Part shown: piece by piece, positions 199 to 53,757 of the stretch
How the letters are laid out: each line of letters begins with the position of its first letter
Numbering within the stretch: position 1 is the stretch's first letter
Virus record (IMG/VR): IMGVR_UViG_3300028025_004184
Coordinates: 1-60,134 of that record
DNA from: a virus
Lineage: Duplodnaviria > Caudoviricetes
Strand: one strand, 5' to 3'
Length of the DNA: 60,134 bases
Notes under the pieces: model-generated
Database searches by the model: none
What the model was told of the DNA's origin: nothing
The model's input: the letters and a program-made list of their open reading frames with translations, nothing else
Translations under genes and position numbers: made by a program

Positions 199-231
199 CA
201 ACAAAGTGACAATCTCCTAACTTTTTTATAG

Positions 232-245
232 CACCCTCATATAAT
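232..245 (+). promoter_or_regulatory. variant of the phage late-promoter motif upstream of ncRNA A
   Basis: CACCCTCATATAAT, one mismatch to CACCCTTATA. Confidence 0.4.
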
Positions 246-269
246 GAGGATAAAGACTCGCATTGACTT

Positions 270-643
270 TAGTCGGGACCGTGAAAAAAAGCAGACCTTA
301 GACCTTTTAAGCTCTGTCAGCGTATGCCCCTGAGATAGCATAACTTGTCATCGTGGGATAATGAGACAAGCGGAATGCCCCTAAATCAATGACAATTTAC
401 GCCAAGGTTGATGAAACGAGACTAGTTGGCACAGACTTTGCAAGGAAAGTGTTGAGTACTTGGAAAGGCATAAAACGGCATGTCAAGCAATGACAGCTTA
501 GTTCTTTTGCGCCCTATTGTCAAATTAAAATCATTTATAAAGGAAAACAGCCTAGGCATAACCTAAGCTGTTTTAAAGGTAGGATAAGACTCGCCACCAG
601 CGTTTTGACGGCCTGAAAGGGCCTCTGGTGACTTGCCCGACTA
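270..643 (+). ncRNA. putative structured ncRNA A (family unidentified)
   Basis: Closing helix TAGTCGGG (270-277)/CCCGACTA (636-643), several internal hairpins, no long ORF, motifs shared with 40699-40960. Confidence 0.55.
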
Positions 644-863: not shown

Positions 864-1092
864 TTGGCACGAGTCTTGCATTAGCAAAGCCAATTACCAG
901 CGTATATTCTTGCAAAGAAAATGTTTTGGCATGGCTTTTGCGTTATTGCATTGCTTTCCAGAAATGCTATAATAAGTTAACACCAGCGAAACAAGGCAAG
1001 TTGGATAAAAGAGCCTGACAGTAATCAAGATTAGGGGAAAAGCAAGCAAAAAAAAATAGGCAAGAAACTTGCATCTGCAAGGCCCATGCCAA
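864..1092. promoter_or_regulatory. cluster of sigma54 (-24/-12) consensus sites
   Basis: TTGGCACGAGTCTTGCA 864-880 +, TTGGCATGGCTTTTGCG 926-942 +, TAGGCAAGAAACTTGCA 1057-1073 +, TTGGCATGGGCCTTGCA 1076-1092 -; all GG-N10-GC. Confidence 0.65.
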
Positions 1093-9792: not shown

Positions 9793-10137
9793 ATGAGCGT
9801 TTATCACGAGTTAGATAATTTAGAAATTGAAAGACTTAGAAAAAAAATTGTAGAGCTTGAGCTAGAGTTATCTAAAGCACATTCTCTTTTACAAGACAAT
9901 GACTTATTTGAAGAATTGCCAAGTACTTCTGACGAAGAGGTAATATGCGTTAACGAGATTCACAAGTTAAGAGTTGCATCAGACAACGGCATTCTTACGC
10001 TAGAAGATGTGAAAATTCTAGACCTTTTAGTTAAGAATTTATTAGCTATTAGAGGTAAGCCAGCTGAAGAAAAGAAAGACAGAAAAAAAGGTGCTAAGAG
10101 TGTAGCTGAGCTTCTTAGCATTGTTGATAAAAAATGA
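9793..10137 (+). CDS. possible terminase small subunit
   Basis: Helical protein overlapping the terL start; call rests on position only. Confidence 0.4.
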   Translation: MSVYHELDNLEIERLRKKIVELELELSKAHSLLQDNDLFEELPSTSDEEVICVNEIHKLRVASDNGILTLEDVKILDLLVKNLLAIRGKPAEEKKDRKKGAKSVAELLSIVDKK

Positions 10138-11618
10138 GTGAAAAAAAAGAACGACCTATTTCACGAGAAGAAGCTATTACCCAATTATGGGAGCATGGCG
10201 TTCTAGATTATAAACTTACCGAGCCTCAGAAAATAATTAAGAAAGGTATTCTAGAAGATAAGAGTAAGATCAGTGTTGTCATGTGTGCTCGTCGTCTTGG
10301 TAAAAGTTATCTAGCACTTTCCATGGCGATAGAGGCTTGCCTAAAGACTCCAGATACTATTGTCAAATATGTATTCCCTAAACAAAAAGCTGCTAAGAAA
10401 AATATCCTTCCAATTATGAAAACTATTCTAGAGGACTGTCCAAAGTCTCTGCGTCCTGTGTTTATGGCTGCTGATCTTTTGTATAAATTTCCTAATGGTA
10501 GTGAGTTGCAAATGGCAGGTTCTGATAATGGCAACATAGAAAATATTCGAGGTGGTAACTCCAGTTTGAATATCGTAGATGAGGCTGGATTCTGCGATGA
10601 TTTAACATACGCTGTTAGATCAGTATTAGCTCCTACAACTAAGTTAACGCATGGTAGAACTATACTAGTATCTACTCCATCTCGTTACGAAGATCATGAA
10701 TTTGTTCAGGACTGGGCTTTAAAATATCAAGCAGAAGGCCGTATTAGAGTCTTTACTATTTTTGATAACCCACAGTTTACAGAAGCTATTATTAAAGACG
10801 CTCTAGATGATTATCCAGACGGTGAAAAAGATCCCGGATTTCGTCGTGAGTATATGTGTGAGATTGTACGCAGCGCAGATACATCTATTTTACCATCATT
10901 TAGCTCAGATGTTGAAAGAGTAATTGTAAGATCTGACTATCCTAGACCAGTATTCTATGATGCATACGTTTCTATGGATATCGGGGGATCAGATTTAACC
11001 GCTGTAGTTTTTGGGTATTACGACTATCTAAATGCCACTACAGTGATAGAAGATGAGCTTATTTTTGGAAAAGAAGTAAATACTAGGCTAGTTGCTGAAG
11101 CTATAAGAAAAAAAGAAGAAGAGCTTTGGAGAAATTCTATAGATGAGAGCATTATTCCTCCATACCTAAGAATTGCCGATAACAATAACTTAATTATGTT
11201 AACTGACTTACAAAGAGATCACGGTATAACATTCATCCCAACAAGAAAAGATAACAGAGAAGCGGCTATTAATGCACTAGACGTAGGATTATCCCAACAT
11301 AAGGTAATTATTCACCCAAAGTGTACACATACCTTGTATCACATGAAATTTGCAAGATGGGATAAGAATAGAAGAAATTTTCTTAAGCTCAAAGACTCTC
11401 CCTCTGGCCAAATTAAAGGCGGTCACGCAGATGCTCTTGCCGCAATCATATACTTACACAGAAATATTATTAAAAGTAAAAATCCTTATCCAGTTGGGTA
11501 TGGCGATATTTCTGGTTCTGGAGTTTTCGCATCTCAGCTAAAAAAAGATGAGCAAAAAGATAAGTCTATGAAATCTTGGCTTTCTGGTATGGTGTGGAAG
11601 AGGCCTAGCGGTAAGTAA
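10134..11618 (+). CDS. terL: terminase large subunit
   Basis: ARRLGKS Walker A, IVDEAG Walker B, VSTP coupling motif, FRREYMCE, SMDIGGSD nuclease Asp. Confidence 0.95.
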   Translation: MSEKKERPISREEAITQLWEHGVLDYKLTEPQKIIKKGILEDKSKISVVMCARRLGKSYLALSMAIEACLKTPDTIVKYVFPKQKAAKKNILPIMKTILEDCPKSLRPVFMAADLLYKFPNGSELQMAGSDNGNIENIRGGNSSLNIVDEAGFCDDLTYAVRSVLAPTTKLTHGRTILVSTPSRYEDHEFVQDWALKYQAEGRIRVFTIFDNPQFTEAIIKDALDDYPDGEKDPGFRREYMCEIVRSADTSILPSFSSDVERVIVRSDYPRPVFYDAYVSMDIGGSDLTAVVFGYYDYLNATTVIEDELIFGKEVNTRLVAEAIRKKEEELWRNSIDESIIPPYLRIADNNNLIMLTDLQRDHGITFIPTRKDNREAAINALDVGLSQHKVIIHPKCTHTLYHMKFARWDKNRRNFLKLKDSPSGQIKGGHADALAAIIYLHRNIIKSKNPYPVGYGDISGSGVFASQLKKDEQKDKSMKSWLSGMVWKRPSGK

Positions 11619-38600: not shown

Positions 38601-40256
38601 ATTGACTCAGTAAAAAATCCTACTATAATAGGTAAGAAGTTGGTGTCTGGAATACCTTCCACCACATCGTTCAAATTATCTGGTGTTTCTTCAGCATCTC
38701 TTTCAGCTTTTCAACAAGCTATTGTATTTCCAGCTGATGTGGTTTCTGATAACTCTGTAAATCCAAATAGAGTGTATTTTTCCAAGATTTACCAACCAGA
38801 GGCTGTGCCTCTTGTCAACTATATTGATATTGGAGCAAGAGATAAGAAGATTCAAAGAATCATCGCACTTAGAGATAGTTTAGCTGTTCTAAAAGAAGAG
38901 GGTGTGTACATCATATCAGGGCCTTCTGCTCCTAACTTCTCAGTGAGGCTTTGTGACTCCTCTGCGTTAACTTTCGCACCAGACACGGCTGTTAACTTGA
39001 ACAACCTTGTGTACGTACTAACGAGCCAAGGTGTGGTTACTGTTTCAGAAACAGGTATCCAAGTTATGTCAAGAAATATTGAGAACAAGATACAGGAAGT
39101 GACTACTTCCAAGTTTGATTATAAAATGATGAGCTGGGGACTGTCTTCAGAGTCTGACAGATGTTACATTCTATGGCTTCCAGAAAAGACAACAAACCAA
39201 TATGCAACACAAGCATATAGGTATAATACATTTACTAGAGCTTGGACTAGATGGACAAAGCCAGCTAATTGTGGAGTTGTAAATCCCGCAGATGACAAGA
39301 TGTACCTTGGAGACTCGTCAGGAAGACCTTATGTTCTTCAAGAAAGAAAGAATTTTGAAAGACAAGATCACGCAGACAGAGAGATCATAAAGAGCATACA
39401 GCCTGATGGAGTTAGTGGAACTACTCATACCCTATCATCAGCTTCTGAAATAGCTATTGGTGATGTTATGACTCAGATACAGTACTTAGATATAAATAAA
39501 TTTAATAGATTCTTAAAGAAACTAGATAGGGATAGGTTCTCTTCATCCCCTGATAAATATATAACTCTAAAGGCAGTAGCAGGAGACAGCTTAGGACTTA
39601 AGCTTCAAGAAGTTGAAGCCAAACTACTATCGGATGGGATTATAATAACTCCTAGCAGCTCTGGATCAGATGTAGCAGCAGATATTGCTAATAACTTTAA
39701 CGCAATTGTTACAGTTTTAAACGATCCTCTTACCTTGAATAATTACAAAGACTACAAGTATGTTGAAGACGCACTAACCTACGAAGTACTCATAGTTGGA
39801 GTGAATGTAGGAACTAACTCTGTTACTACTAAGTCACAGAATAAGTTTGTAGCTGGGGATGTGTCCATATTCAAAGGAATACAGTGCATTGTTCAGTACG
39901 CTCCGCAACACTTTGGAAAACCAGAGGCTACTAAGCAGATATCAGAAGGAACGCTAATATTCGACCAGAATAACTTCTGGGGCGGATCTGTTGCCTATTC
40001 TTCAGACAGATCTTACGACTTCTCTAGTATAGAATTTTCAGGAAGAGGACCGGGATACTGGGACGGATACAACTGGGCTAATGCTACTTTTGGTGGAGAA
40101 GGTAATGAAGTTCCTGTGAGAACTTTACTTCCAATTGACAAGTCAAGATGTAGGTACTTGCATGTGCAATTTACCCACATTAACGCAAGAGAACAGTGGA
40201 AACTAATTGGAGTTTCTTTACAGCCTAGAGAAGTGTCTACTAGAGGGTACAGATAA
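35643..40256 (+). CDS. tail tubular protein B / nozzle (P22 gp10 or T7 gp12-like)
   Basis: GL..SPN.L.LP.GAL..ADN...I..RRG N-terminus, NRVYFSK...PEAVP propeller, RYLHVQF C-terminus. Confidence 0.7.
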   Translation: MAVLTIKRGLVTSPNELALPDGALSVADNCVIDSDNIIEPRRGFSEFGNKTDESDSVVKQLMTYKGRIIRHFDSKLSFDSNGNGSFLNFDGSYSELVSRLRIKYFELNSNLYFTTNEGIKKISAKSADDFSTNADYITNAGGVKAVGLEAKLVPNVAGFLPAQSKVAYKVLWARKDANGNIIRGVPSSRKVITNTSTDVNTGESFTVTVYDAGAGIHKSFDSTSSISSGVQTTFLAAAVNITDNTIALTTGATDHNYQTNDLVKLVQNGTDALPTGLSAGNYYVIRVDTNKIKLKTTPTGTEVDITATGVSGIIESTNVGKTITITSHGYEDGDKVRLYGVLPNELDTTKTYYIVNKTTDTFQLSLTSGGAAIYLTKKVGTANIYSGLSSNDFFLFDSPTNKFAAWFNISGEDVSPTSSLLLGRQLIEVPIYKIAIKNKINYASKIAESLYTISDIEVEVGTEVVTVTNRDGGDVLDASQGGMDVTYAAVSKIYDGRTAIGTPANVQITAIVPGEIASKDYFYEVYRTAVVTVQTGLALNDIDPGEEFQKIFESPVSTNGTIPSEVVFDDTLPETFREGGAYLYTNPVTGEGVLQANEAPPISHDVAIFKGSAFYANTKERHRLQFNILSVSQYTSGVSKLFIGNSTKMNTYTFVGKNEILKFTAKKKSETTESSYFDIMSAQNKIKYRVWFDKGGSTPPDQDNCLLLKVPMQTYEDTIQGSVDAFVEAFFDINDFSITNINHEFNSLDDVNSSTETITIPAHGFLDGDTVTFSGTSPTNITNDTVYYIVDKTADTFKVSLSSGGTPVDITAIAGTSRVAQTTVIVTYADNGDADPVVQSSPATGWISPTIIQEGDGENASNNEVLLSGLASQSLSIEDTARSLEKVINKDPTSPVNAFYLSGLNDLPGLLLLESRSLLDDPFYLAFNEEFTDSLGNPIAVFEPSLPVAKTITSIVTSTPEAVFYTTPVLHGLSLNQEVYAYVDATIDSVKNPTIIGKKLVSGIPSTTSFKLSGVSSASLSAFQQAIVFPADVVSDNSVNPNRVYFSKIYQPEAVPLVNYIDIGARDKKIQRIIALRDSLAVLKEEGVYIISGPSAPNFSVRLCDSSALTFAPDTAVNLNNLVYVLTSQGVVTVSETGIQVMSRNIENKIQEVTTSKFDYKMMSWGLSSESDRCYILWLPEKTTNQYATQAYRYNTFTRAWTRWTKPANCGVVNPADDKMYLGDSSGRPYVLQERKNFERQDHADREIIKSIQPDGVSGTTHTLSSASEIAIGDVMTQIQYLDINKFNRFLKKLDRDRFSSSPDKYITLKAVAGDSLGLKLQEVEAKLLSDGIIITPSSSGSDVAADIANNFNAIVTVLNDPLTLNNYKDYKYVEDALTYEVLIVGVNVGTNSVTTKSQNKFVAGDVSIFKGIQCIVQYAPQHFGKPEATKQISEGTLIFDQNNFWGGSVAYSSDRSYDFSSIEFSGRGPGYWDGYNWANATFGGEGNEVPVRTLLPIDKSRCRYLHVQFTHINAREQWKLIGVSLQPREVSTRGYR

Positions 40257-40666
40257 TGCCAAAATTATCGGATATTAGAAGAATTGTTCCTGAAGACTAC
40301 GAAGAAGAATTTCAAGAGTCAGCTGAACTAATAGCTGGCTCTTATAATGAATTTGCTGACGAAGTGTATCAGCTAGTTAATGGTGGACTTGACTTTGATA
40401 ACTTAGCTAGGGCCTCTATTAGCATAGACATAACTTTTGACGCTTCTGGTAATCCTGTTGGAAATGCCAGTATTTCATGCAAACTTGCGTACGTGTCTAT
40501 GGTCCATATTGGAAAGATTCAAAATCTAACCAATAAGTCAGCTAGGATAACTCAAGTTCCCTATATAGACTGGACCTACTCCGGAGGAGGAATTGTTAAG
40601 ATTCTTTACGGAGTTGGATTTACAGCTGGTTCTAAATATAGACTAATATTAGAGCTTATTCAATAG
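40256..40666 (+). CDS. tail-associated structural protein
   Basis: TAATG overlap; LVNGGLDFDNL motif. Confidence 0.6.
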   Translation: MPKLSDIRRIVPEDYEEEFQESAELIAGSYNEFADEVYQLVNGGLDFDNLARASISIDITFDASGNPVGNASISCKLAYVSMVHIGKIQNLTNKSARITQVPYIDWTYSGGGIVKILYGVGFTAGSKYRLILELIQ

Positions 40667-40698
40667 TTTACATAGCTTTACCTATATAGAGCATTAAT

Positions 40699-40960
40699 CT
40701 CTTTTCAATAAAACCAACTCCTTAGTGTGCTTTTAGCTATTTGGGGTGAGGGCTTGGGCTTTTAACCTGAATGTATCTTTTCTACAAAGTTCCAAACTTC
40801 CAATAACTTTGCTTGACTCTCTGGCTTTCCGCTAGGTACTTAGTGGTTTTGCGACACCTAGTCGAGTATTTCGTTTCCTACACCGGCTCGTATATCGGAC
40901 TCGCTTGTAAGTCCTCTATTTCACGGTCCAAAAGAGCAAAAAGAGAAGAAATTAATCTTC
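40699..40960 (-). ncRNA. putative structured ncRNA B, related to 270-643
   Basis: ORF-free gap with its own promoter; GGACCGTGAAA, three hairpins, CGGAAAGCC-N6-TCAA as in ncRNA A. Confidence 0.55.
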
Positions 40961-40966
40961 CTTGCT

Positions 40967-40995
40967 AATATACCATAACTTTTATATACTTGCAA
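40967..40995 (-). promoter_or_regulatory. sigma70-type promoter firing into the noncoding gap
   Basis: TTGCAA-N17-TATATT with TG extended -10. Confidence 0.6.
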
Positions 40996-41032
40996 CTGTG
41001 TGCTAATCTGTATAGGTAAAAGGATGATTTAA

Positions 41033-41042
41033 CACCCTTATA
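41033..41042 (+). promoter_or_regulatory. putative phage late promoter
   Basis: CACCCTTATA upstream of internal virion genes. Confidence 0.65.
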
Positions 41043-41059
41043 ATACAGAGGAATTAACT

Positions 41060-43441
41060 ATGGGAATGCGTTCAAATACAAATCAAGTTGGTCAAGGAAT
41101 GGGCACAGCCCTGACTGAGGAAGAAAAGAGAAAGCAGGAACAAGAACAAGCTCCACAGCCTCAAATCCAACAAACAACATCCGCAGCTCCTCGCATCGGA
41201 GAAGCTCAGGCAACAGCCATGAAAGCGGCTCCAAAAGAGCAGAAAGCTGGAACTGGTACTTTCGCTAATCTTAAAAGTTATATACAGGCTGCTCAGGGCG
41301 GAGGTCAGCAAAGAATTGCTCAGGCCGCAACGCAAAAAGTTCAGAATGTGGCAACTGGTGCTCAGAAGGGTATCCAGCAAGCTCAGAACGTATTTGGAAA
41401 AAAAGTAGAGGCAGGAAGTTTGTCTGGAATAGCTGCTCCGGGAGGAGTAGAGGCGGTTGGAAAAGAAGCCCAAGATATTATTAACGCAGCTAGAAAGGTT
41501 ACATATCAAGCTCCACAGCCAGCTACTGCACCTGCTACTCAGGCCACGGCTCCTGCCACAACAGCTGCAACAGCTCCTTCAGGTGAACAACCACAGCAGT
41601 CAGTTGTAGAACCCACAGTTGCTCAAGCTCAACAGTATTTTACTCCAGAACAGCAAAAGCGTTTTGCAGACATTATTAACGCACAATATGGTGGCCCAGC
41701 ATCTTTACAAGAAGCTGGACTTTATAGCGACATTGCTAAAAAAGCCAGAACAGCTCAAGAAGCAATTGGTCAAACTCAGACAGCCGCTGGAAGAGAGCAG
41801 TTGTTAAGAAATATCTTCAGCCAAGGTAGAGATTATACTAGAGGGCAATCTAAGCTAGATGCTTTACTTTTAAACACATCTCAGCAAGGTGTTGGAGAAT
41901 TACAGAGTCAGGCAAAGCAAGCAGGTAACATTCAGCAGCAAGCAGAACAAGCGCAGACACAATCTGCAAATGAAGCAGCTCAGAGAGCTAAAGAAATTTC
42001 AGATGTGCAACAAGCTTCTAGAAAAGCATTTTTAGAAGGTAGAACTGCTGAAGAAGCAGCTACTGAAACTAGAATGGACAAGCTTATAAAAGATCCAGCA
42101 TTAGATGCTTCTGGAAATAAAATACCTAAACTAGATATGGAAGGAAAGCCTATAGTAGATGCAGCTGGTAATCCAGTTTATCAAACTCAGTGGGACCAGC
42201 TTCCAGAATATTTTAGAGATATTATTAGAAATAAAGAAGCTAATAACAAAGCTATGCAAGCAGAGGCGTTTGCAAATTTAGACTCGTCAACTGGACTCAA
42301 TGAAGCAGGATATAAAAAAGCTCAGGCTAATCTCAAGGCTCAGCAAATAGCATTAGAAAATGCTAAAAATATTAATATGTATAGAGCTATAGGTGGATTG
42401 GCTCCTGATGAAAATGTGGATGAAAAAATTAAAATAGCTCAGCAAAATTTAGATGCTGCAAAATCTGACTTAGCTGGCTACTCAGATTATTTAAAACAGC
42501 GTAAAGATATCCAGAATATGAGCATGAAGCAGCTTAGATTAAGCCCTGAAGAAGCGGCTATTCTGGGGGTATCTTCTGGTGAAGGATTTTATAATGAACT
42601 GCCAACATTAATAAAAGACGTTAACGCAGAAAGATCAAGATTAATTACAAAAGATGAATTTGCTAGACAACAAGCATTAGCACAGTTAGCAGGTACAGAT
42701 ATTTCAAGAGCTTTACAAAAAGATTTAATGTACACAGACGCAGAAAAAGCAGGATCTCAGACATTAAGTAGTTCTTTAGATACTCAAGCAATAAGAAACG
42801 CTCTTAATGAAGCACAAACAAAATTTAAAGAAAGTGCAGAGGCCGCTAATTTAACTGGAAGTGGTAAAAAGAAAGTGTCCAGAGGTAACTGGGCGGGAAC
42901 AAGAACTAAAACATATACAGCTTCACAAGAAGGTAATGTTGCAGATATGTTGCGTCAAGCAGGATATGATGTTTCTGCAGAAAGTCCTGAAGCAGCTAAA
43001 TCATTGCTAACAGATAAAGAAGCTTTAGCTAATTATTTAGGAGCAACAGATACTTCTAGAGGAGATTCTGGGAGTATGTGGGCAGAAGGTGCTGCAAGAA
43101 CAGGAACAGGAGCTGCTATAGGAGCTGCTCTTGGATCATATGTTCCGGTTATAGGAACAGGTGTAGGAGCCGCTATAGGTAGTATGTATGGATCTATTCT
43201 TGGAGGAAATTCTACTCTTTCTAATGTAGTAGGAAATCTAGGTGGAGGTAGAATGAGTGATTCTGCCATGGCAGAAGTAGGTAAAGGTACTGCGAAAGAA
43301 TTAGCAATAAAAGATTTATATAATAAATATAATAAATATTTAGCTGGACAAGGATTTGAAAATAGAGCTAATATAGTAGACTCTGATATTACATCAGCTA
43401 GATCTGCTGCGCTTCAAGATTTATTACGTAGACAAGGCTAA
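41060..43441 (+). CDS. internal virion / ejection protein
   Basis: Ala/Gln-rich helical protein with C-terminal glycine zipper; position after tail genes. Confidence 0.65.
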   Translation: MGMRSNTNQVGQGMGTALTEEEKRKQEQEQAPQPQIQQTTSAAPRIGEAQATAMKAAPKEQKAGTGTFANLKSYIQAAQGGGQQRIAQAATQKVQNVATGAQKGIQQAQNVFGKKVEAGSLSGIAAPGGVEAVGKEAQDIINAARKVTYQAPQPATAPATQATAPATTAATAPSGEQPQQSVVEPTVAQAQQYFTPEQQKRFADIINAQYGGPASLQEAGLYSDIAKKARTAQEAIGQTQTAAGREQLLRNIFSQGRDYTRGQSKLDALLLNTSQQGVGELQSQAKQAGNIQQQAEQAQTQSANEAAQRAKEISDVQQASRKAFLEGRTAEEAATETRMDKLIKDPALDASGNKIPKLDMEGKPIVDAAGNPVYQTQWDQLPEYFRDIIRNKEANNKAMQAEAFANLDSSTGLNEAGYKKAQANLKAQQIALENAKNINMYRAIGGLAPDENVDEKIKIAQQNLDAAKSDLAGYSDYLKQRKDIQNMSMKQLRLSPEEAAILGVSSGEGFYNELPTLIKDVNAERSRLITKDEFARQQALAQLAGTDISRALQKDLMYTDAEKAGSQTLSSSLDTQAIRNALNEAQTKFKESAEAANLTGSGKKKVSRGNWAGTRTKTYTASQEGNVADMLRQAGYDVSAESPEAAKSLLTDKEALANYLGATDTSRGDSGSMWAEGAARTGTGAAIGAALGSYVPVIGTGVGAAIGSMYGSILGGNSTLSNVVGNLGGGRMSDSAMAEVGKGTAKELAIKDLYNKYNKYLAGQGFENRANIVDSDITSARSAALQDLLRRQG

Positions 43442-48058: not shown

Positions 48059-48334
48059 ATGCAAGAGCAATTAGACAAAATTGAAGAAAAAGTTGACAGA
48101 ATTGAGTCTAAGATATCTAACATAGATGTTACTCTTGCTAAGCAAGAAGTAAACTTAGCTGAACATATGAGAAGAACTGAGTTGAATGAAATAGCGGTTG
48201 AAAAAATAAGAGAAACATTAGTTCCCATAAACAAACACGTAAATATGTTAGAAGGTGTTTTTAAATTTTTTGGACTAATATCTATTTTATTAGGAATTGT
48301 AGTTTCTTTATTAAAACTAATTAGTTTGATGTAA
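48059..48334 (+). CDS. holin/XhlA-like membrane protein
   Basis: Coiled coil plus a single C-terminal TM segment. Confidence 0.55.
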   Translation: MQEQLDKIEEKVDRIESKISNIDVTLAKQEVNLAEHMRRTELNEIAVEKIRETLVPINKHVNMLEGVFKFFGLISILLGIVVSLLKLISLM

Positions 48335-48956
48335 AATATTCAAAAATTAAGTTTCTAGTATGTGTAGCTTTTTTTCTACAAACTTTAATAATAGTAGTAG
48401 CATGAAGCCCTAATTCTTGTGCCGCAATAGACGCTGATTGATAAATCACTCCAGTATTAATACAAATAACAGGCTTGCATCCATGACCTCTGAGTTTTCT
48501 AGTTTCAGATATCTTTTTCTTAGTTCCCTCTGACCTTAGTTTTCCATACATTGGGTTATTAATACCTTTTACCTTTTCTGATGTTTTTCTTTTTGATTCT
48601 TCACTTCTCTTCTTGCCATACATCGGATTTCCTTTGCCAGAATATAAAACAGATCTATATTTTATAGTAGACTCTTGAGCTTTAAATCCCCACGCACCCT
48701 CTCCACCATTAGTAAGATTTGCTTCACAATAACCTAAAGATTTATACAGCTTTATTAATTCAACTTCTTTTTTATAAGCTTCTTTTTGAGTTAAATTTTT
48801 TAAAATTATTTGAACTTTATAACCAATTTTAGAAATGCTTTTCCAGTATTTGTTCCTACTCTTTTTCTGAAAAGCTCTATCCCCACTACCTTTCCCTATA
48901 TAAAATGGAGTATTATTATCAATTCTTATGTGTCTATAAATATAATACTTATTCAT
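48321..48956 (-). CDS. GIY-YIG homing endonuclease with NUMOD3/NUMOD1-type repeats
   Basis: YYIY...FYIGKG..R, NLTNGGEG, NPMYGK twice, KPVICINTG. Confidence 0.9.
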   Translation of the reverse strand: MNKYYIYRHIRIDNNTPFYIGKGSGDRAFQKKSRNKYWKSISKIGYKVQIILKNLTQKEAYKKEVELIKLYKSLGYCEANLTNGGEGAWGFKAQESTIKYRSVLYSGKGNPMYGKKRSEESKRKTSEKVKGINNPMYGKLRSEGTKKKISETRKLRGHGCKPVICINTGVIYQSASIAAQELGLHATTIIKVCRKKATHTRNLIFEYFTSN

Positions 48957-49665: not shown

Positions 49666-50229
49666 TCATGATCCTACAATCCAATGTTTTTCATTAGCTT
49701 TATACTTCGGAAGTTCTTCTTGCTCAAATAAAGCCTTATCTAAAAACCTAATTCTATACTGTGGATAAAGCATAAGATAGCCATCATTTGTCTGAATGGC
49801 GTGTAACTGTTTCCAGTGAGTAGGGTGGCGAGAAAACCCCTCTCCAACAAAATCTATAGTAAAAAGATACTTTCCAGACTTGGCTGGTATCATATCAGGC
49901 TTAACTTCACACTCAGCGTACCTAAGAGTTTCCATAACAAAAAAGTCAATGTCATCGCTTACACAGTCCCACATCTGAGCGTCTTGAAGGTTTATAAGCC
50001 CATTAAACTCGTCCTCTCTAAAGGTTATGGCATGTGCCGGTAGTCCAGTAAAAAGAGCACCATTGTCCAATAAAATGCTAAATTGCAAAGCTTGGTTTTG
50101 TCTAGCCCTTACAGACACTAAATGTCCAGCCGTTTTGCCATAGAAGTTAGAGTCATCATTAAATAAGAACCTATTCCAAACATACACACGAATTGGAGGC
50201 AAGTTAGCGTTACTCATCCCCAAACCCAC
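49666..50229 (-). CDS. hypothetical phage protein
   Basis: Long ORF; probable start MSNANLPP at 50217. Confidence 0.75.
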   Translation of the reverse strand: MGLGMSNANLPPIRVYVWNRFLFNDDSNFYGKTAGHLVSVRARQNQALQFSILLDNGALFTGLPAHAITFREDEFNGLINLQDAQMWDCVSDDIDFFVMETLRYAECEVKPDMIPAKSGKYLFTIDFVGEGFSRHPTHWKQLHAIQTNDGYLMLYPQYRIRFLDKALFEQEELPKYKANEKHWIVGS

Positions 50230-51143
50230 TTAGGTTTACCACTCAACACTACCATAGAGTCTAGCGTGAATTGTTTTGGTTTAATCGCTAAGCTAGGGGC
50301 CTCAAACTGAGCGTTTAGCAAAGCTTCATCCAGTACACTGTGTAAGCCCCTAGCTCCTAATCCCTTCTCAATAGCCTTCTGCGCTATGATGTTAATAGCA
50401 CTATCTTCTACCACAAGCTCAATACCTTCGCTCAAAAACCACTCTTTAAACGAGTTTAGAATAGACCCCTTAGAGTCACGTAGGATCTTCCTGTAATCGT
50501 CAAATTTAAGCTCCTGAAGCTGTGTGATAACCGGGAATCTTCCAAGAAACTCAGGTATCATGCCAAAGTCCGTTAAACTCTGCACACTTGACGACTCTAG
50601 CCCTATAAAAGCACCAGAGCATATAAACATAATATCTTTAGTGTTCATCTTCTTATCATACTCGCCATTCTGAGAGTATTTAGAAATATATGGAACATCA
50701 CTACCTTCCAGTAGTTTTAGAAGTGACTGCTGCACTCCAAGACCATTAACATCTGGTCCATTTCCGTCATTAGATTTTTTACGAAGCTTATCTATCTCAT
50801 CGATGTATATAATAGACTTTGAGGCCTTATACTCGTTGCCTTCGCATATACCCAGTAAGTCTGTTATAAGTTCTTCTACACTTCTTCCCTGATATCCAGA
50901 GGAAGTGAACTGAGTTGCGTCACTTGTCAAAAAGTTAACGCCTAGTATTTGAGCCAGTATGGACACTAGATATGTCTTGCCACACCCAGTAGGTCCGATT
51001 AATAGCACGTTAGACTTTTTAATAGTACTGCCGTTCATTCTTTTAAAATGGTTATAAGCGGCCACAGACAAGGCTCTTTTAGTTTTCTCATGACCGATAA
51101 CGTACTCATCTAGCTGCTTTTTAATTTCTTCTGGAGTTTTCAT
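50214..51143 (-). CDS. clpX: ClpX-like AAA+ ATPase lacking the N-terminal Zn domain and IGF loop
   Basis: LDEYVIGH, KSNVLLIGPTGCGKT, IYIDEIDK, GVQQSLLKLLEG, PEFLGRF, GARGL. Confidence 0.9.
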   Translation of the reverse strand: MKTPEEIKKQLDEYVIGHEKTKRALSVAAYNHFKRMNGSTIKKSNVLLIGPTGCGKTYLVSILAQILGVNFLTSDATQFTSSGYQGRSVEELITDLLGICEGNEYKASKSIIYIDEIDKLRKKSNDGNGPDVNGLGVQQSLLKLLEGSDVPYISKYSQNGEYDKKMNTKDIMFICSGAFIGLESSSVQSLTDFGMIPEFLGRFPVITQLQELKFDDYRKILRDSKGSILNSFKEWFLSEGIELVVEDSAINIIAQKAIEKGLGARGLHSVLDEALLNAQFEAPSLAIKPKQFTLDSMVVLSGKPKWVWG

Positions 51144-52038: not shown

Positions 52039-52809
52039 TTAAAAAGTCAAACTAACTTTTTTGTTTCTTACTTCAATAAACTTTCTAGCATGTGAGAAGT
52101 TTTCTTTCTTAACATCTCTAGAGAACTTGATATCAATAGGAGCTGGAAGCAATGGACATGCCGAGAACACTACATTAATGATACCGAATGGAGTAGAAAC
52201 TTCTTCTGTGATCTCATCTTCAATAAGAGCTTTATCACATGTAACATCAGCTACTTGATCAGCTTGTCCAGTTTTTACAGCGTTCTCTCCAAAGCTCCAA
52301 AGCTCATTAACGATAGAGGCTTCGTAGTCTTTTAGAGGAATACCGATTCGTTTAGCAGCAGCTTTGTTCATGCCAGACAATACTTGATGAATTAGATCAA
52401 GTCTAGAATCTAGTTCTCCGGGAACTTGCCCAGACAGTCCTGAGATTGCACCTCTGTGACTCATCAATGTTCCAGATGGAGTGATGTATCGAATACCGAG
52501 TTGCTGAACTACTTGATAGCCCATAGATGCAGCTGATAGTGTAATTGTGTGAACAGGAATCTTTAGTGACTTAATTGTATCAATAAATCTTAGACCGTCC
52601 GCAACAGATCCACCCGGAGTGTCTAGAACTAAATAAAGCTTATTTGAAGACGTAGACTTAGCAAATACTTCCATGATCTTTTTAGCAACATACAGTCCAG
52701 TAAATGGCTGGTTAAAAACTACACTATTATCTTTAGTAAGTGTAATTTGTGCATTTTTAGCGAAGGCAGTATTGCAAATTAAAGCAATAATCATAATTAA
52801 TTTTAACAT
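52039..52809 (-). CDS. ClpP/crotonase-fold serine protease with signal peptide
   Basis: LDTPGGSV..G, AASMG (Ser), LMSHR (His); N-terminal MLKLIMIIALICNTAFA. Confidence 0.8.
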   Translation of the reverse strand: MLKLIMIIALICNTAFAKNAQITLTKDNSVVFNQPFTGLYVAKKIMEVFAKSTSSNKLYLVLDTPGGSVADGLRFIDTIKSLKIPVHTITLSAASMGYQVVQQLGIRYITPSGTLMSHRGAISGLSGQVPGELDSRLDLIHQVLSGMNKAAAKRIGIPLKDYEASIVNELWSFGENAVKTGQADQVADVTCDKALIEDEITEEVSTPFGIINVVFSACPLLPAPIDIKFSRDVKKENFSHARKFIEVRNKKVSLTF

Positions 52810-53204: not shown

Positions 53205-53347
53205 TAAAGTAACTCCCTTCCAAGAGCAGTTTTCTGCAACTCTTTCTCCAATTCACGATCTTCTAACAGTTCCTTCGCTTCTTCTATTGATATAAGACCT
53301 GACTCTAATAGAATAAGCATTAATTGAACTTTACTGTCAAAACTCAT
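53204..53347 (-). CDS. 47-aa protein, C-terminus TALGRELL
   Basis: MSFDSKVQLMLILLESGLISIEEAKELLEDRELEKELQKTALGRELL; overlaps both neighbours; below the ORF track cutoff. Confidence 0.7.
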   Translation of the reverse strand: MSFDSKVQLMLILLESGLISIEEAKELLEDRELEKELQKTALGRELL

Positions 53348-53757
53348 TTCTTATTCTCTCTTCTAGCCAATGCCCTATCACCTCTTTCAGCCAAGCTCTT
53401 AGATTTATGGCAAATCCAGCATATGCTCTGAACATTGTCCTCTTCACAAAACATTCTAGTTATCACCTTATTCCAATCCTTATTCTTACCAGAGTCTTCA
53501 ACTGGAATAACTGGCTCAATATGATCAACATCCATTCTACCAGCTATAGCTGTTGGATAGTCATTTCTTATAGACTCTATAGATCTTTTTCCAGTATAAA
53601 TTATTTGCTTGCATAAAGGGCATTTATGAAGCTCAGGGCCTATCTTAGTCTTTTTCTTTGCCCTTAATATTGGAGGCCACTGCTTTGTCAACTTTCTTAA
53701 TGCCGACATTATTTTTGATTCGAATTTCTTGTCCACTAGGTTTCTCCGGTTTAACAC
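53344..53757 (-). CDS. HNH-family nuclease
   Basis: CPLC...DVDHIEPV...NVQSICWICHKSKS. Confidence 0.8.
   Translation of the reverse strand: MLNRRNLVDKKFESKIMSALRKLTKQWPPILRAKKKTKIGPELHKCPLCKQIIYTGKRSIESIRNDYPTAIAGRMDVDHIEPVIPVEDSGKNKDWNKVITRMFCEEDNVQSICWICHKSKSLAERGDRALARRENKK

Follow-up and report, generated by a model that had tools for sequence, protein, structure and literature searches.

Evidence for a New Structured RNA Family in Uncultured Tailed Phages

The stretch of DNA analyzed here (the window) is the entire IMG/VR virus record IMGVR_UViG_3300028025_004184, a linear sequence of 60,134 nucleotides (nt) from a member of Caudoviricetes with a completeness estimate of 71%. It very probably carries two copies of a real, selected RNA fold that belongs to a new family: locus A on the plus strand, close to the beginning of the window, and locus B on the minus strand (Table 1). 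As judged from their sequences, A and B are two diverged paralogous genes and structural homologues of each other. A previous sequence-only reading of the window had proposed a two-copy structured phage RNA family with conserved junctions and swapped stems; its observation has been partly confirmed, and the interpretation as a structured family is supported by homologues with compensatory changes in at least 23 viral records. The carriers are uncultured freshwater phages.

Shared Fold and Homology of the Two Loci

The two loci share a core of ~125 nt, which consists of a long bulged helix P1, an internal loop in which a single A faces AANG, a helix P1d of three base pairs (bp), and a four-way junction. 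The junction contains, in order, an A-rich joiner J1/2 (UGAAA(U/A)A), P2, J2/3, P3, one A, and P4, the joiners being 9, 5-7, 1, and 0 nt long. The family signature further includes the J1/2 motif U(G/U)AAA, closure of P4 by a C-G and a U-A pair, and a 3-bp kissing contact between the loops of P3 and P4. Two covariance models were used, one built from nine B-type sequences only (R1) and a broader one (R2). R1 found locus A at 266-387 (+) with an E-value of 0.0028-0.0052 in search spaces of 80-146 kilobases (kb), and this detection of A by a B-only model shows that the resemblance between A and B is beyond chance. The same model additionally found L016, L112, L113, and L128 (L and G numbers denote individual loci or contigs and related records, respectively). 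When R2 was applied to the whole window with filters off, exactly two sites were returned, locus B (E-value 1.1e-34) and locus A (1.7e-11), and the next match had an E-value of 0.19. Both window loci fall within the proposed family definition by their R2 scores and by their kissing triplets, CCU/GGG in A and GGU/ACC in B.

The stems of the family covary strongly. In nine distinct B-type cores (alignment A3), all of the 252 stem cells were paired (252/252); 9 of the 28 pairs varied, each of them by double-sided change, and one-sided changes were absent. RNAalifold, applied to a plain MAFFT alignment of 15 B-type sequences that had not been fitted to a model, predicted 59 pairs, 20 of which were compensatory; the prediction comprised the same helices of B, plus P1a and the P5 hairpin. 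Pairing was observed in 98% of the cells of 14 sequences (double-sided change in 19 of 28 pairs) and in 93.4% of the 605 stem cells of 23 distinct cores, where 23 of 28 pairs showed double-sided change, compared with 8-14 pairs in the slid controls. The covariation score of the 23 cores was 0.60 versus 0.04-0.09 for the controls, and none of 500 shuffles reached 0.60. Counts from alignment A6 leave out identical duplicates (L003, L017, L022, L158, and others) and the later-found L291 and L292, and plain MAFFT alignments of A with B and of all types, which misalign P2 and P3, were excluded from the counts.

Individual positions give the same picture. P1c reads GG/CC in B, GGG/CCC in A, CC/GG in L113, and AAG/CUU in L128, and the first pair of P1d is C-G, A-U (L112, L239, and L291), or G-C (L113). 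Throughout the divergent copies, neither the lone A nor the AANG strand varies, and the A/AANG loop is present in all 23 rows. Outside the core, the P6 hairpin described for B covaries by inspection (AUCC/GGAU, UCGC/GCGA, and, in L128, UAACU/AGUUA). As to the strand of the RNA, conserved G-U pairs at A3 columns 3/124, 8/119, and 85/102 would be A-C mismatches on the other strand.

The kissing contact follows a simple rule, in which nt 3-5 of the P3 loop pair with the three nt immediately 5' of the conserved A-N-UAAG in the P4 loop. Eight different triplet pairs were observed (GGU/ACC, GGC/GCC, CCU/GGG, CCC/GGG, CGU/ACG, CGG/CCG, GGA/UCC, and CAC/GUG), and wherever the P3 loop of a B-type sequence has C in place of U (L011 and L020), its P4 loop has G in place of A. 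Alignment A6 was not fitted to this contact, and the covariance model has no pseudoknot. In A6, 88.5% of the 52 cells in columns 128-130/195-197 were paired versus 25-59% for slid partners, with 16 double-change cells versus 0-5 in the slid controls. In an ungapped test, 15 of 21 rows paired at three of three positions at offset 2, compared with 0-6 of 21 at six other offsets; the six failures were due either to a one-nt register shift (L113, L128, and L239) or to misplacement of P3 by the model (L111, L183, and L159).

Intermolecular pairing between A and B was also considered and rejected. GUGG in the P4 loop of A could pair with CCAC in the P4 loop of B, and GACUCGC in the leader of A (254-260, and again 587-593) with GCGAGUC in P2 of B; both complementarities are of the size expected by chance, and neither covaries between genomes by inspection. 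The intramolecular P3-P4 contact accounts better for both P4-loop triplets.

Several points weaken the case for the fold. Alignments A5 and A6 were fitted to the model, which somewhat inflates the pairing, and many members came from pattern searches in which the conserved motifs were required, so that the apparent invariance is partly by construction. However, locus A, L111/L112, L113, L128, and L159, which came from BLAST or model searches of related genomes and are free of this bias, still fit the fold. In addition, the folding energy is no better than that of shuffled sequences (z-scores of -1.34 for 265-650 and +0.44 for locus B). Because the energy is unremarkable and the covariation is strong, it is covariation and not stability that supports the fold.

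Table 1. Elements of the two RNA loci and their promoters, in window positions.
Locus	Element	Position	Strand	Remarks
A	Candidate promoter	217-245	+	Perfect -10 TATAAT 240-245, weak -35-like CTAACT 217-222, 17-nt spacer; by eye
A	Conserved core	262-390	+	R1 match, E 0.003; R2 match 266-387, E 1.7e-11; compensatory changes in L111, L112, L113
A	P1 outer	262-266/386-390	+	Followed by bulged C267
A	P1b	268-272/381-385	+	Followed by bulge 273-274
A	P1c	275-277/378-380	+	
A	Internal loop	A278 opposite AAUG 374-377	+	
A	P1d	279-281/371-373	+	
A	J1/2 UGAAAAAAA	282-290	+	
A	P2	291-317	+	J2/3 at 318-322
A	P3	323-327/338-342	+	Followed by single A343
A	P4	344-349/365-370	+	
A	Kissing pseudoknot	P3-loop CCU 329-331 with P4-loop GGG 355-357	+	Alignment A6 pairing and offset control
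A	Second domain, P5 hairpin	401-410/422-430	+	RNAalifold on A-type trio; tentative, few sequences
A	Second domain, P6 hairpin, conserved loop GAAAGUGUUGAGUA	436-445/459-467	+	RNAalifold on A-type trio; tentative, few sequences
A	3' hairpin	546-556/562-572	+	Only UUUU run after it
A	3' hairpin	595-600/625-630 enclosing 610-614/619-623	+	GAAA loop
B	Promoter	40995-40967	-	TTGCAA, 17-nt spacer, TGgTATATT (extended -10, sigma-70-type); conserved in B-type relatives
B	5' hairpin GAAGA/UCUUC, loop UUAAUU	40944-40961	-	Stem covaries in B-type: GGAGC/GCUCC, GGAGA/UCUCC, GAGGG/CCCUU
B	P1a-closed domain	40776-40944	-	Core R2 match 40814-40939, E 1.1e-34
B	P1a	40944-40938/40782-40776	-	
B	P1b	40937-40932/40821-40816	-	One-nt bulge 40931
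B	P1c	40930-40928/40824-40822	-	
B	Internal loop	A40927 opposite AAAG 40828-40825	-	
B	P1d	40926-40924/40831-40829	-	
B	J1/2 UGAAAUAGA	40923-40915	-	
B	P2	40914-40910/40901-40897	-	
B	P3	40890-40887/40866-40863	-	Followed by single A40862
B	P4	40861-40855/40838-40832	-	No linker back to P1d
B	P5 hairpin	40812-40806/40790-40784	-	
B	Kissing pseudoknot	P3-loop GGU 40884-40882 with P4-loop ACC 40847-40845	-	GGC/GCC in L011, L020
B	Small 3' hairpin	40767-40764/40760-40757	-	
B	P6, conserved loop CCAAAUAGCUAAAAGCAC	40752-40745/40721-40714	-	Then UUUU 40713-40710

Architecture, Ends, and Expression

All motifs that the sequence-only reading had listed for locus A are in place, namely TAGTCGGG (270-277), CCCGACTA (636-643), GGACCGTGAAA (276-286), the hairpins GCAGA/TCTGT (291-317), TATGC/GCATA (323-342), and, after A343, CTTGTC/GACAAG (344-370), CGGAATGCC-N6-TCAA (371-389), and the stems AACAGC/GCTGTT (546-572) and CACCAG/CTGGTG (595-630). 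The same order of elements recurs on the minus strand from 40929 downward, and the record contains two instances of GGACCGTGAAA, one on each strand, and no others (reversed-pattern control: 0). The inference of conserved junctions with swapped stems holds, but the domain is closed by the local P1, and the P3-P4 loop-loop pseudoknot had been missed. An 8-bp closing helix proposed between 270-277 and 636-643 was rejected, because the A-type relatives L111 and L112 lack it and because its 5' arm is taken by the conserved local P1 (268-272/381-385 and 275-277/378-380). A calculation of our own puts the number of such 8-mer complements arising by chance in 400 nt at about one. A suggested GGCAT/ATGCC pairing (467-471/375-379) was rejected for lack of covariation, the ATGCC side having become ACGCC in L111 with GGCAT unchanged.

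Beyond the core, the P6-loop motif of A is identical in L016, and the loop of B is related to it. The two 3' hairpins of A (546-572 and 595-630), neither of which was called by a terminator scan, show compensatory stem changes in L111 and L112 (three sequences in all). The leader of A, GGATAA(A)GACTCGC at 247-261, is repeated directly ~335 nt downstream (581-594), just before the CACCAG/CTGGTG hairpin. The duplication, which L111 and L112 share, may indicate a second start site or a binding site present twice. Conserved coding potential is absent from locus A, where a 34-amino-acid (aa) open reading frame (ORF) at 389-493 is lost in the relative L111.

RNA A is predicted to start near 252, after a promoter that was not called by a consensus scan; its A-type relatives have CATTAT at the place of the -10 element. 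For RNA B, a start near 40961 and a likely 3' end at the UUUU of 40713-40710 would give a length of ~250 nt; the 3' end of RNA A is uncertain, lying somewhere between ~575 and ~650. Promoter-like hexamers were also found upstream of L128, L183, L239, and L291. Another near-consensus sigma-70-type promoter (TTGCAT, 16-nt spacer, TATAAT) lies at 946-973 (+) in the gene-free stretch around locus A; it points into minus-strand genes and was missed by the consensus scan.

In two public RNA-labelled runs, one of which is probably DNA, 5-7% of the sampled words were found. A freshwater metatranscriptome (X2) contained a 205-nt contig exactly on 40739-40943, with contigs of coding parts at similar depth; because such low-depth contigs cannot show ends, strand, or level, it provides no evidence of a discrete transcript.

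Occurrence in Viral Genomes

The RNA has been found in family contigs spanning 42-58% G+C. A two-box pattern retrieved 23 stretches from the viral collection, comprising 10 clear homologues and 13 G+C-rich chance matches, and motif scans together with the model added at least 10 further contigs with 46-58% G+C. A stricter pattern, which required W in AAWG and would miss members of the AAGG and AACG types, gave 57 stretches in metagenomes, 12 of them strong R2 matches (the borderline match L077, with an E-value of 0.009 and 65% G+C, was not counted). In contigs of bacterial and archaeal genomes, the same pattern gave 27 stretches, of which 0/27 scored with R2, and no bacterial or prophage copy was found there. 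L165, L180, and L264 (E-values of 0.005-0.05), as well as L297 and L163, were judged false or doubtful and excluded. An accidental pattern match in L164 belongs to an unrelated 87-nt stretch that recurs in at least ~58 other loci of prophage-type IMG/VR contigs and resembles the beginning of a gene for a small lipoprotein.

Among related records, 12 of 18 matched, including all five of those that are at least 90% complete. A BLAST search with locus A in five related records revealed A-type copies in G004, G005, and, partly, G002. Four of the five near-complete relatives (G001, G002, G004, and G005) have a pair of copies on opposite strands, separated by 32-44 kb, just as the window does. In G003, only one of two matches is a true copy, the other being a false positive in a coding region, and the distant G012, whose large terminase (TerL) is 44% identical, has one copy. 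A search by way of a neighbouring protein (136-aa ORF) yielded only one relative, and BLASTN of A, B, L193, and L287 against 50,697 GenBank phage records gave no match. In L291, the RNA (293-413) lies between homologues of the window genes 9793-10137 and TerL (10134-11618), which abut in the window, suggesting that the RNA gene moves as a cassette.

Comparison with Known RNAs

By the resources available, this is a new RNA family, where "new" refers to the family and its fold and not to a demonstrated mechanism. At gathering thresholds, none of the 4227 models of Rfam 15 matched in the window or in 13 member loci (103,728 nt), and ARAGORN found no tRNA or tmRNA gene in the 60,134 nt, in agreement with the sequence-only reading, which did not recognize the RNA as RNase P, tmRNA, SRP, 6S, or a group I/II intron. 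With permissive settings (E-value up to 10), two weak matches were obtained in 1-1200, ZEB2_AS1_4 at 467-546 (a model without base pairs, E-value 6.2) and ncS54 at 1049-1104, none of them on the core 262-390; three weak matches in 40400-41300 were likewise outside 40814-40939, and one irrelevant match was obtained in positions 400-1150 of L193. A full-text literature search, to which the supplementary motif lists of RNA-discovery papers do not belong, returned no description of the RNA.

Similarities to several known RNAs are limited. GOLLD and ROOL are presented in one recent account as ornate orphan RNAs with no known protein partner, derived largely from environmental and phage sequence (10.1101/2024.12.08.627333). 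The likeness lies in being complex-folded orphan RNAs of phage or environmental sequence. GOLLD and ROOL are ~600-800 nt long and often stand beside tRNA genes, whereas the RNAs described here are ~250-400 nt long and the window has no tRNA genes; moreover, both families are in Rfam, yet neither matched. The prohead RNA of phi29 is also phage-encoded, promoter-driven, stable, and structured, and it acts in trans within a machine; however, the Rfam pRNA model gave no match, the large terminase here is an ordinary one, and the fold is different. As in the tRNA cloverleaf, there is a four-way junction with no linker between its last arm (P4) and the closing helix, but it is set apart by joiners of 9, 5-7, 1, and 0 nt, by a loop-loop contact that links P3 to P4 rather than the first arm to the last, and by the lack of a CCA-type end. 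In a kink-turn, two helices are separated by a 3-nt bulge and, after it, tandem sheared pairs, G-A and A-G. The A/AANG loop would allow the bulge and one G-A pair, and kink-turn identity was rejected because the second position is always Watson-Crick (G-C, A-U, or C-G; columns 12/218); the loop is at most kink-turn-like.

Possible Functions

The preferred reading, to which a probability of about 40% is assigned, is that the RNA acts in trans and binds a partner. In the window lineage, each copy would be a separate transcription unit, with the two paralogues expressed from different promoters, and the RNA would act as a stable folded molecule whose conserved junction and internal-loop pocket binds a specific partner, more likely a protein (with the RNA as scaffold or decoy) than a metabolite. 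The reading is suggested by the promoter of B and by the position of both copies, which face convergent or opposite genes. Locus A lies in 1 kb without genes (132-1132), with minus-strand genes on either side, and points at three minus-strand genes (1133-1933). Locus B occupies a 390-nt gap in the plus-strand structural block, between 40256-40666 and 41060-43441, and runs on the minus strand into the 3' ends of plus-strand tail-region genes. The same opposed arrangement of both copies was found in G001, G002, G004, and G005, and since both copies point against their neighbours, they cannot be mRNA leaders in this lineage. Across genomes the RNA is found between early genes, within the tail-gene block, or directly upstream of TerL (L291), a variability that fits a self-contained trans-acting cassette. 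Such a cassette would explain both kinds of context, whereas a cis leader would explain only the co-directional kind.

Some results speak against a trans-acting RNA. A discrete transcript from A or B is itself a prediction from sequence. All-against-all BLASTP of ORFs detected no protein family common to 11 RNA-bearing loci and the window, and Pfam and PHROGs searches of 48 ORFs found nothing RNA-related, including in the vicinity of A or B. Outside the window lineage, co-directional genes follow the RNA in all eight contigs inspected (8/8), and in all four contigs scanned (4/4), no terminator call separated the RNA from the gene that comes after it. These genes often form a recombination module, such as Erf (L211 and L283), RecT plus exonuclease (L287), or exonuclease (L179). 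Co-directional genes without a called terminator are explained at least as well by a cis leader.

The main rival, possible but distinctly less probable, is a cis-acting, promoter-proximal leader that would control the downstream operon, by put-like processive antitermination or otherwise. Once made, it would act on its own polymerase or on the nascent transcript. The put RNAs of phage HK022 (putL and putR) are ~65-70 nt long and are made up of two hairpins only, separated by one nucleotide. Similarly, P3 and P4 are two hairpins one nucleotide apart, and the family shares with put that it is phage-encoded, occurs as two diverged copies in opposite orientation per genome, is found soon after promoters, and is conserved more in structure than in sequence. 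In the eight contigs mentioned, the RNA stands just after promoter-like sites with co-directional genes next, as expected for put before an operon, and the diversity of the downstream genes (Erf, RecT/exonuclease module, TerL, and small ORFs), together with the lack of an intrinsic terminator before the next gene in the four contigs scanned, would suit a general elongation device. However, this setting before an operon is not seen in the window, G001, G002, G004, or G005, where neither copy has a co-directional gene, and RNA B would end in a hairpin followed by UUUU. The ~125-nt core, with its four-way junction, internal loop, kissing pseudoknot, and further domains, is also far larger than put as the latter is commonly described.

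It is doubtful that the RNA is a small-molecule aptamer, either as a riboswitch-type sensor or as a platform-free sponge for a metabolite or signalling nucleotide. The layout is that of purine and lysine riboswitches, with a multi-helix junction, conserved joiners, and two parallel, neighbouring hairpins tied by Watson-Crick loop-loop pairs, which covary here, and the invariant unpaired nucleotides cluster at the junction. On the other hand, no Rfam riboswitch matched, no expression platform is evident, and neither the loci in the window nor the four contigs scanned gave a terminator or anti-terminator call; downstream genes are diverse, with no recurrent class, or, for the window copies, absent altogether, B is preceded by a promoter of its own, and no ligand suggests itself. 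By analogy, the RNA may at most work in the manner of a put-type element or of an aptamer with a junction and kissing loops, and none of the tests applied places it in either class.

That the RNA is a ribozyme, self-cleaving or of another kind, acting on the transcripts in which it is embedded, is quite unlikely. Twister-sister and hairpin ribozymes are similar in layout, and a conserved internal loop beside a multi-way junction, a tertiary loop contact, and an intergenic location in phages would be in line with such an activity. But no Rfam ribozyme model matches either core even at E-values up to 10, the RNA is bigger than typical small ribozymes, and the window offers no downstream mRNA to process.

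A link to replication or recombination, with the transcripts serving as primers or R-loop formers at origins or aiding single-strand-annealing recombinases, is very improbable. In four ~40-kb-type contigs (L211, L283, L287, and L179), genes for Erf, RecT, or a PD-(D/E)XK (DUF3799) exonuclease lie within ~1.5 kb of the RNA, and locus A is situated in its gene-free stretch near clustered hairpin repeats, the two copies being opposed. However, a conserved four-way junction or kissing loop would be superfluous in primer or R-loop transcripts, locus B lies within the tail-gene block, recombinases are not associated with the RNA in the window lineage, and their proximity elsewhere may merely reflect an early-region location. 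That the loci are no functional RNA but a DNA-level repeat (a protein-binding site or mobile-element remnant) or chance is hardly credible, in spite of the unexceptional folding energy and of an RNA known here from its sequence, because double-sided changes keep pairing at 23 of 28 stem positions and in the pseudoknot, G-U pairs are strand-specific, and the family extends over contigs of 42-58% G+C, whereas DNA repeats do not keep complementarity while their sequence changes.

A more far-reaching proposal is that the core is the active site or high-affinity pocket of a new class of trans RNA, be it a ribozyme, a sponge or decoy, or an RNA-only processive antiterminator, with paralogues timed by different promoters; this would be unlikely as a whole. 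If it were a sponge or decoy, a component of host defence, such as a signalling nucleotide or a sensor protein, would be captured. A specific role is suggested by several hallmarks, including invariant unpaired junction nucleotides, a covarying tertiary contact, own promoters, and two long-diverged paralogues that have both been kept, and the family occurs in phage contigs of widely different G+C and gene content. To our knowledge, very few structured phage RNAs have known jobs. The core is small enough for probing, pull-downs, cleavage or antitermination assays, and structure determination, the main obstacle being that the family is known only from uncultured phages.

Host Phage and Additional Observations

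According to Pfam and PHROGs, the gene set of the phage includes a T4-type TerL, a P22-type portal, and internal-virion and tail-fibre-like proteins. The best match of TerL among the 50,697 GenBank phage records was 30% identical and came from a phage of the freshwater bacterium Silvanigrella, implying that there is no cultured relative in that collection, and close relatives are contigs of 79.6-84.7 kb. In 48321-48956, 53344-53757, 50214-51143, and 52039-52809, the phage also encodes homing-endonuclease-like ORFs of the NUMOD3 and HNH types, a ClpP-like protease, and an AAA+ (ClpB/ClpX-like) ATPase.

In the region of locus A, imperfect palindromes of ~38 nt (GGCA-N5-CTTGCA-NN-TGCAAG-N5-TGCC) are present at 1056-1093, 2286-2323, and 2336-2373, with half copies at 863-880, 925-942, 1211-1228, 2382-2399, and 425-442. 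For TGCAAGNNNNATGCCAAG, allowing up to three mismatches, 11 of 14 matches fall within 425-2400, compared with a chance expectation of 6 in the whole window. One half copy is located inside RNA A, in the linker between P5 and P6, and is conserved in A-type relatives. The palindromes could be operators, iterons, or terminator hairpins. The last of the hairpin repeats is followed directly by 13 consecutive G residues (2419-2431), in a non-coding patch between small genes.

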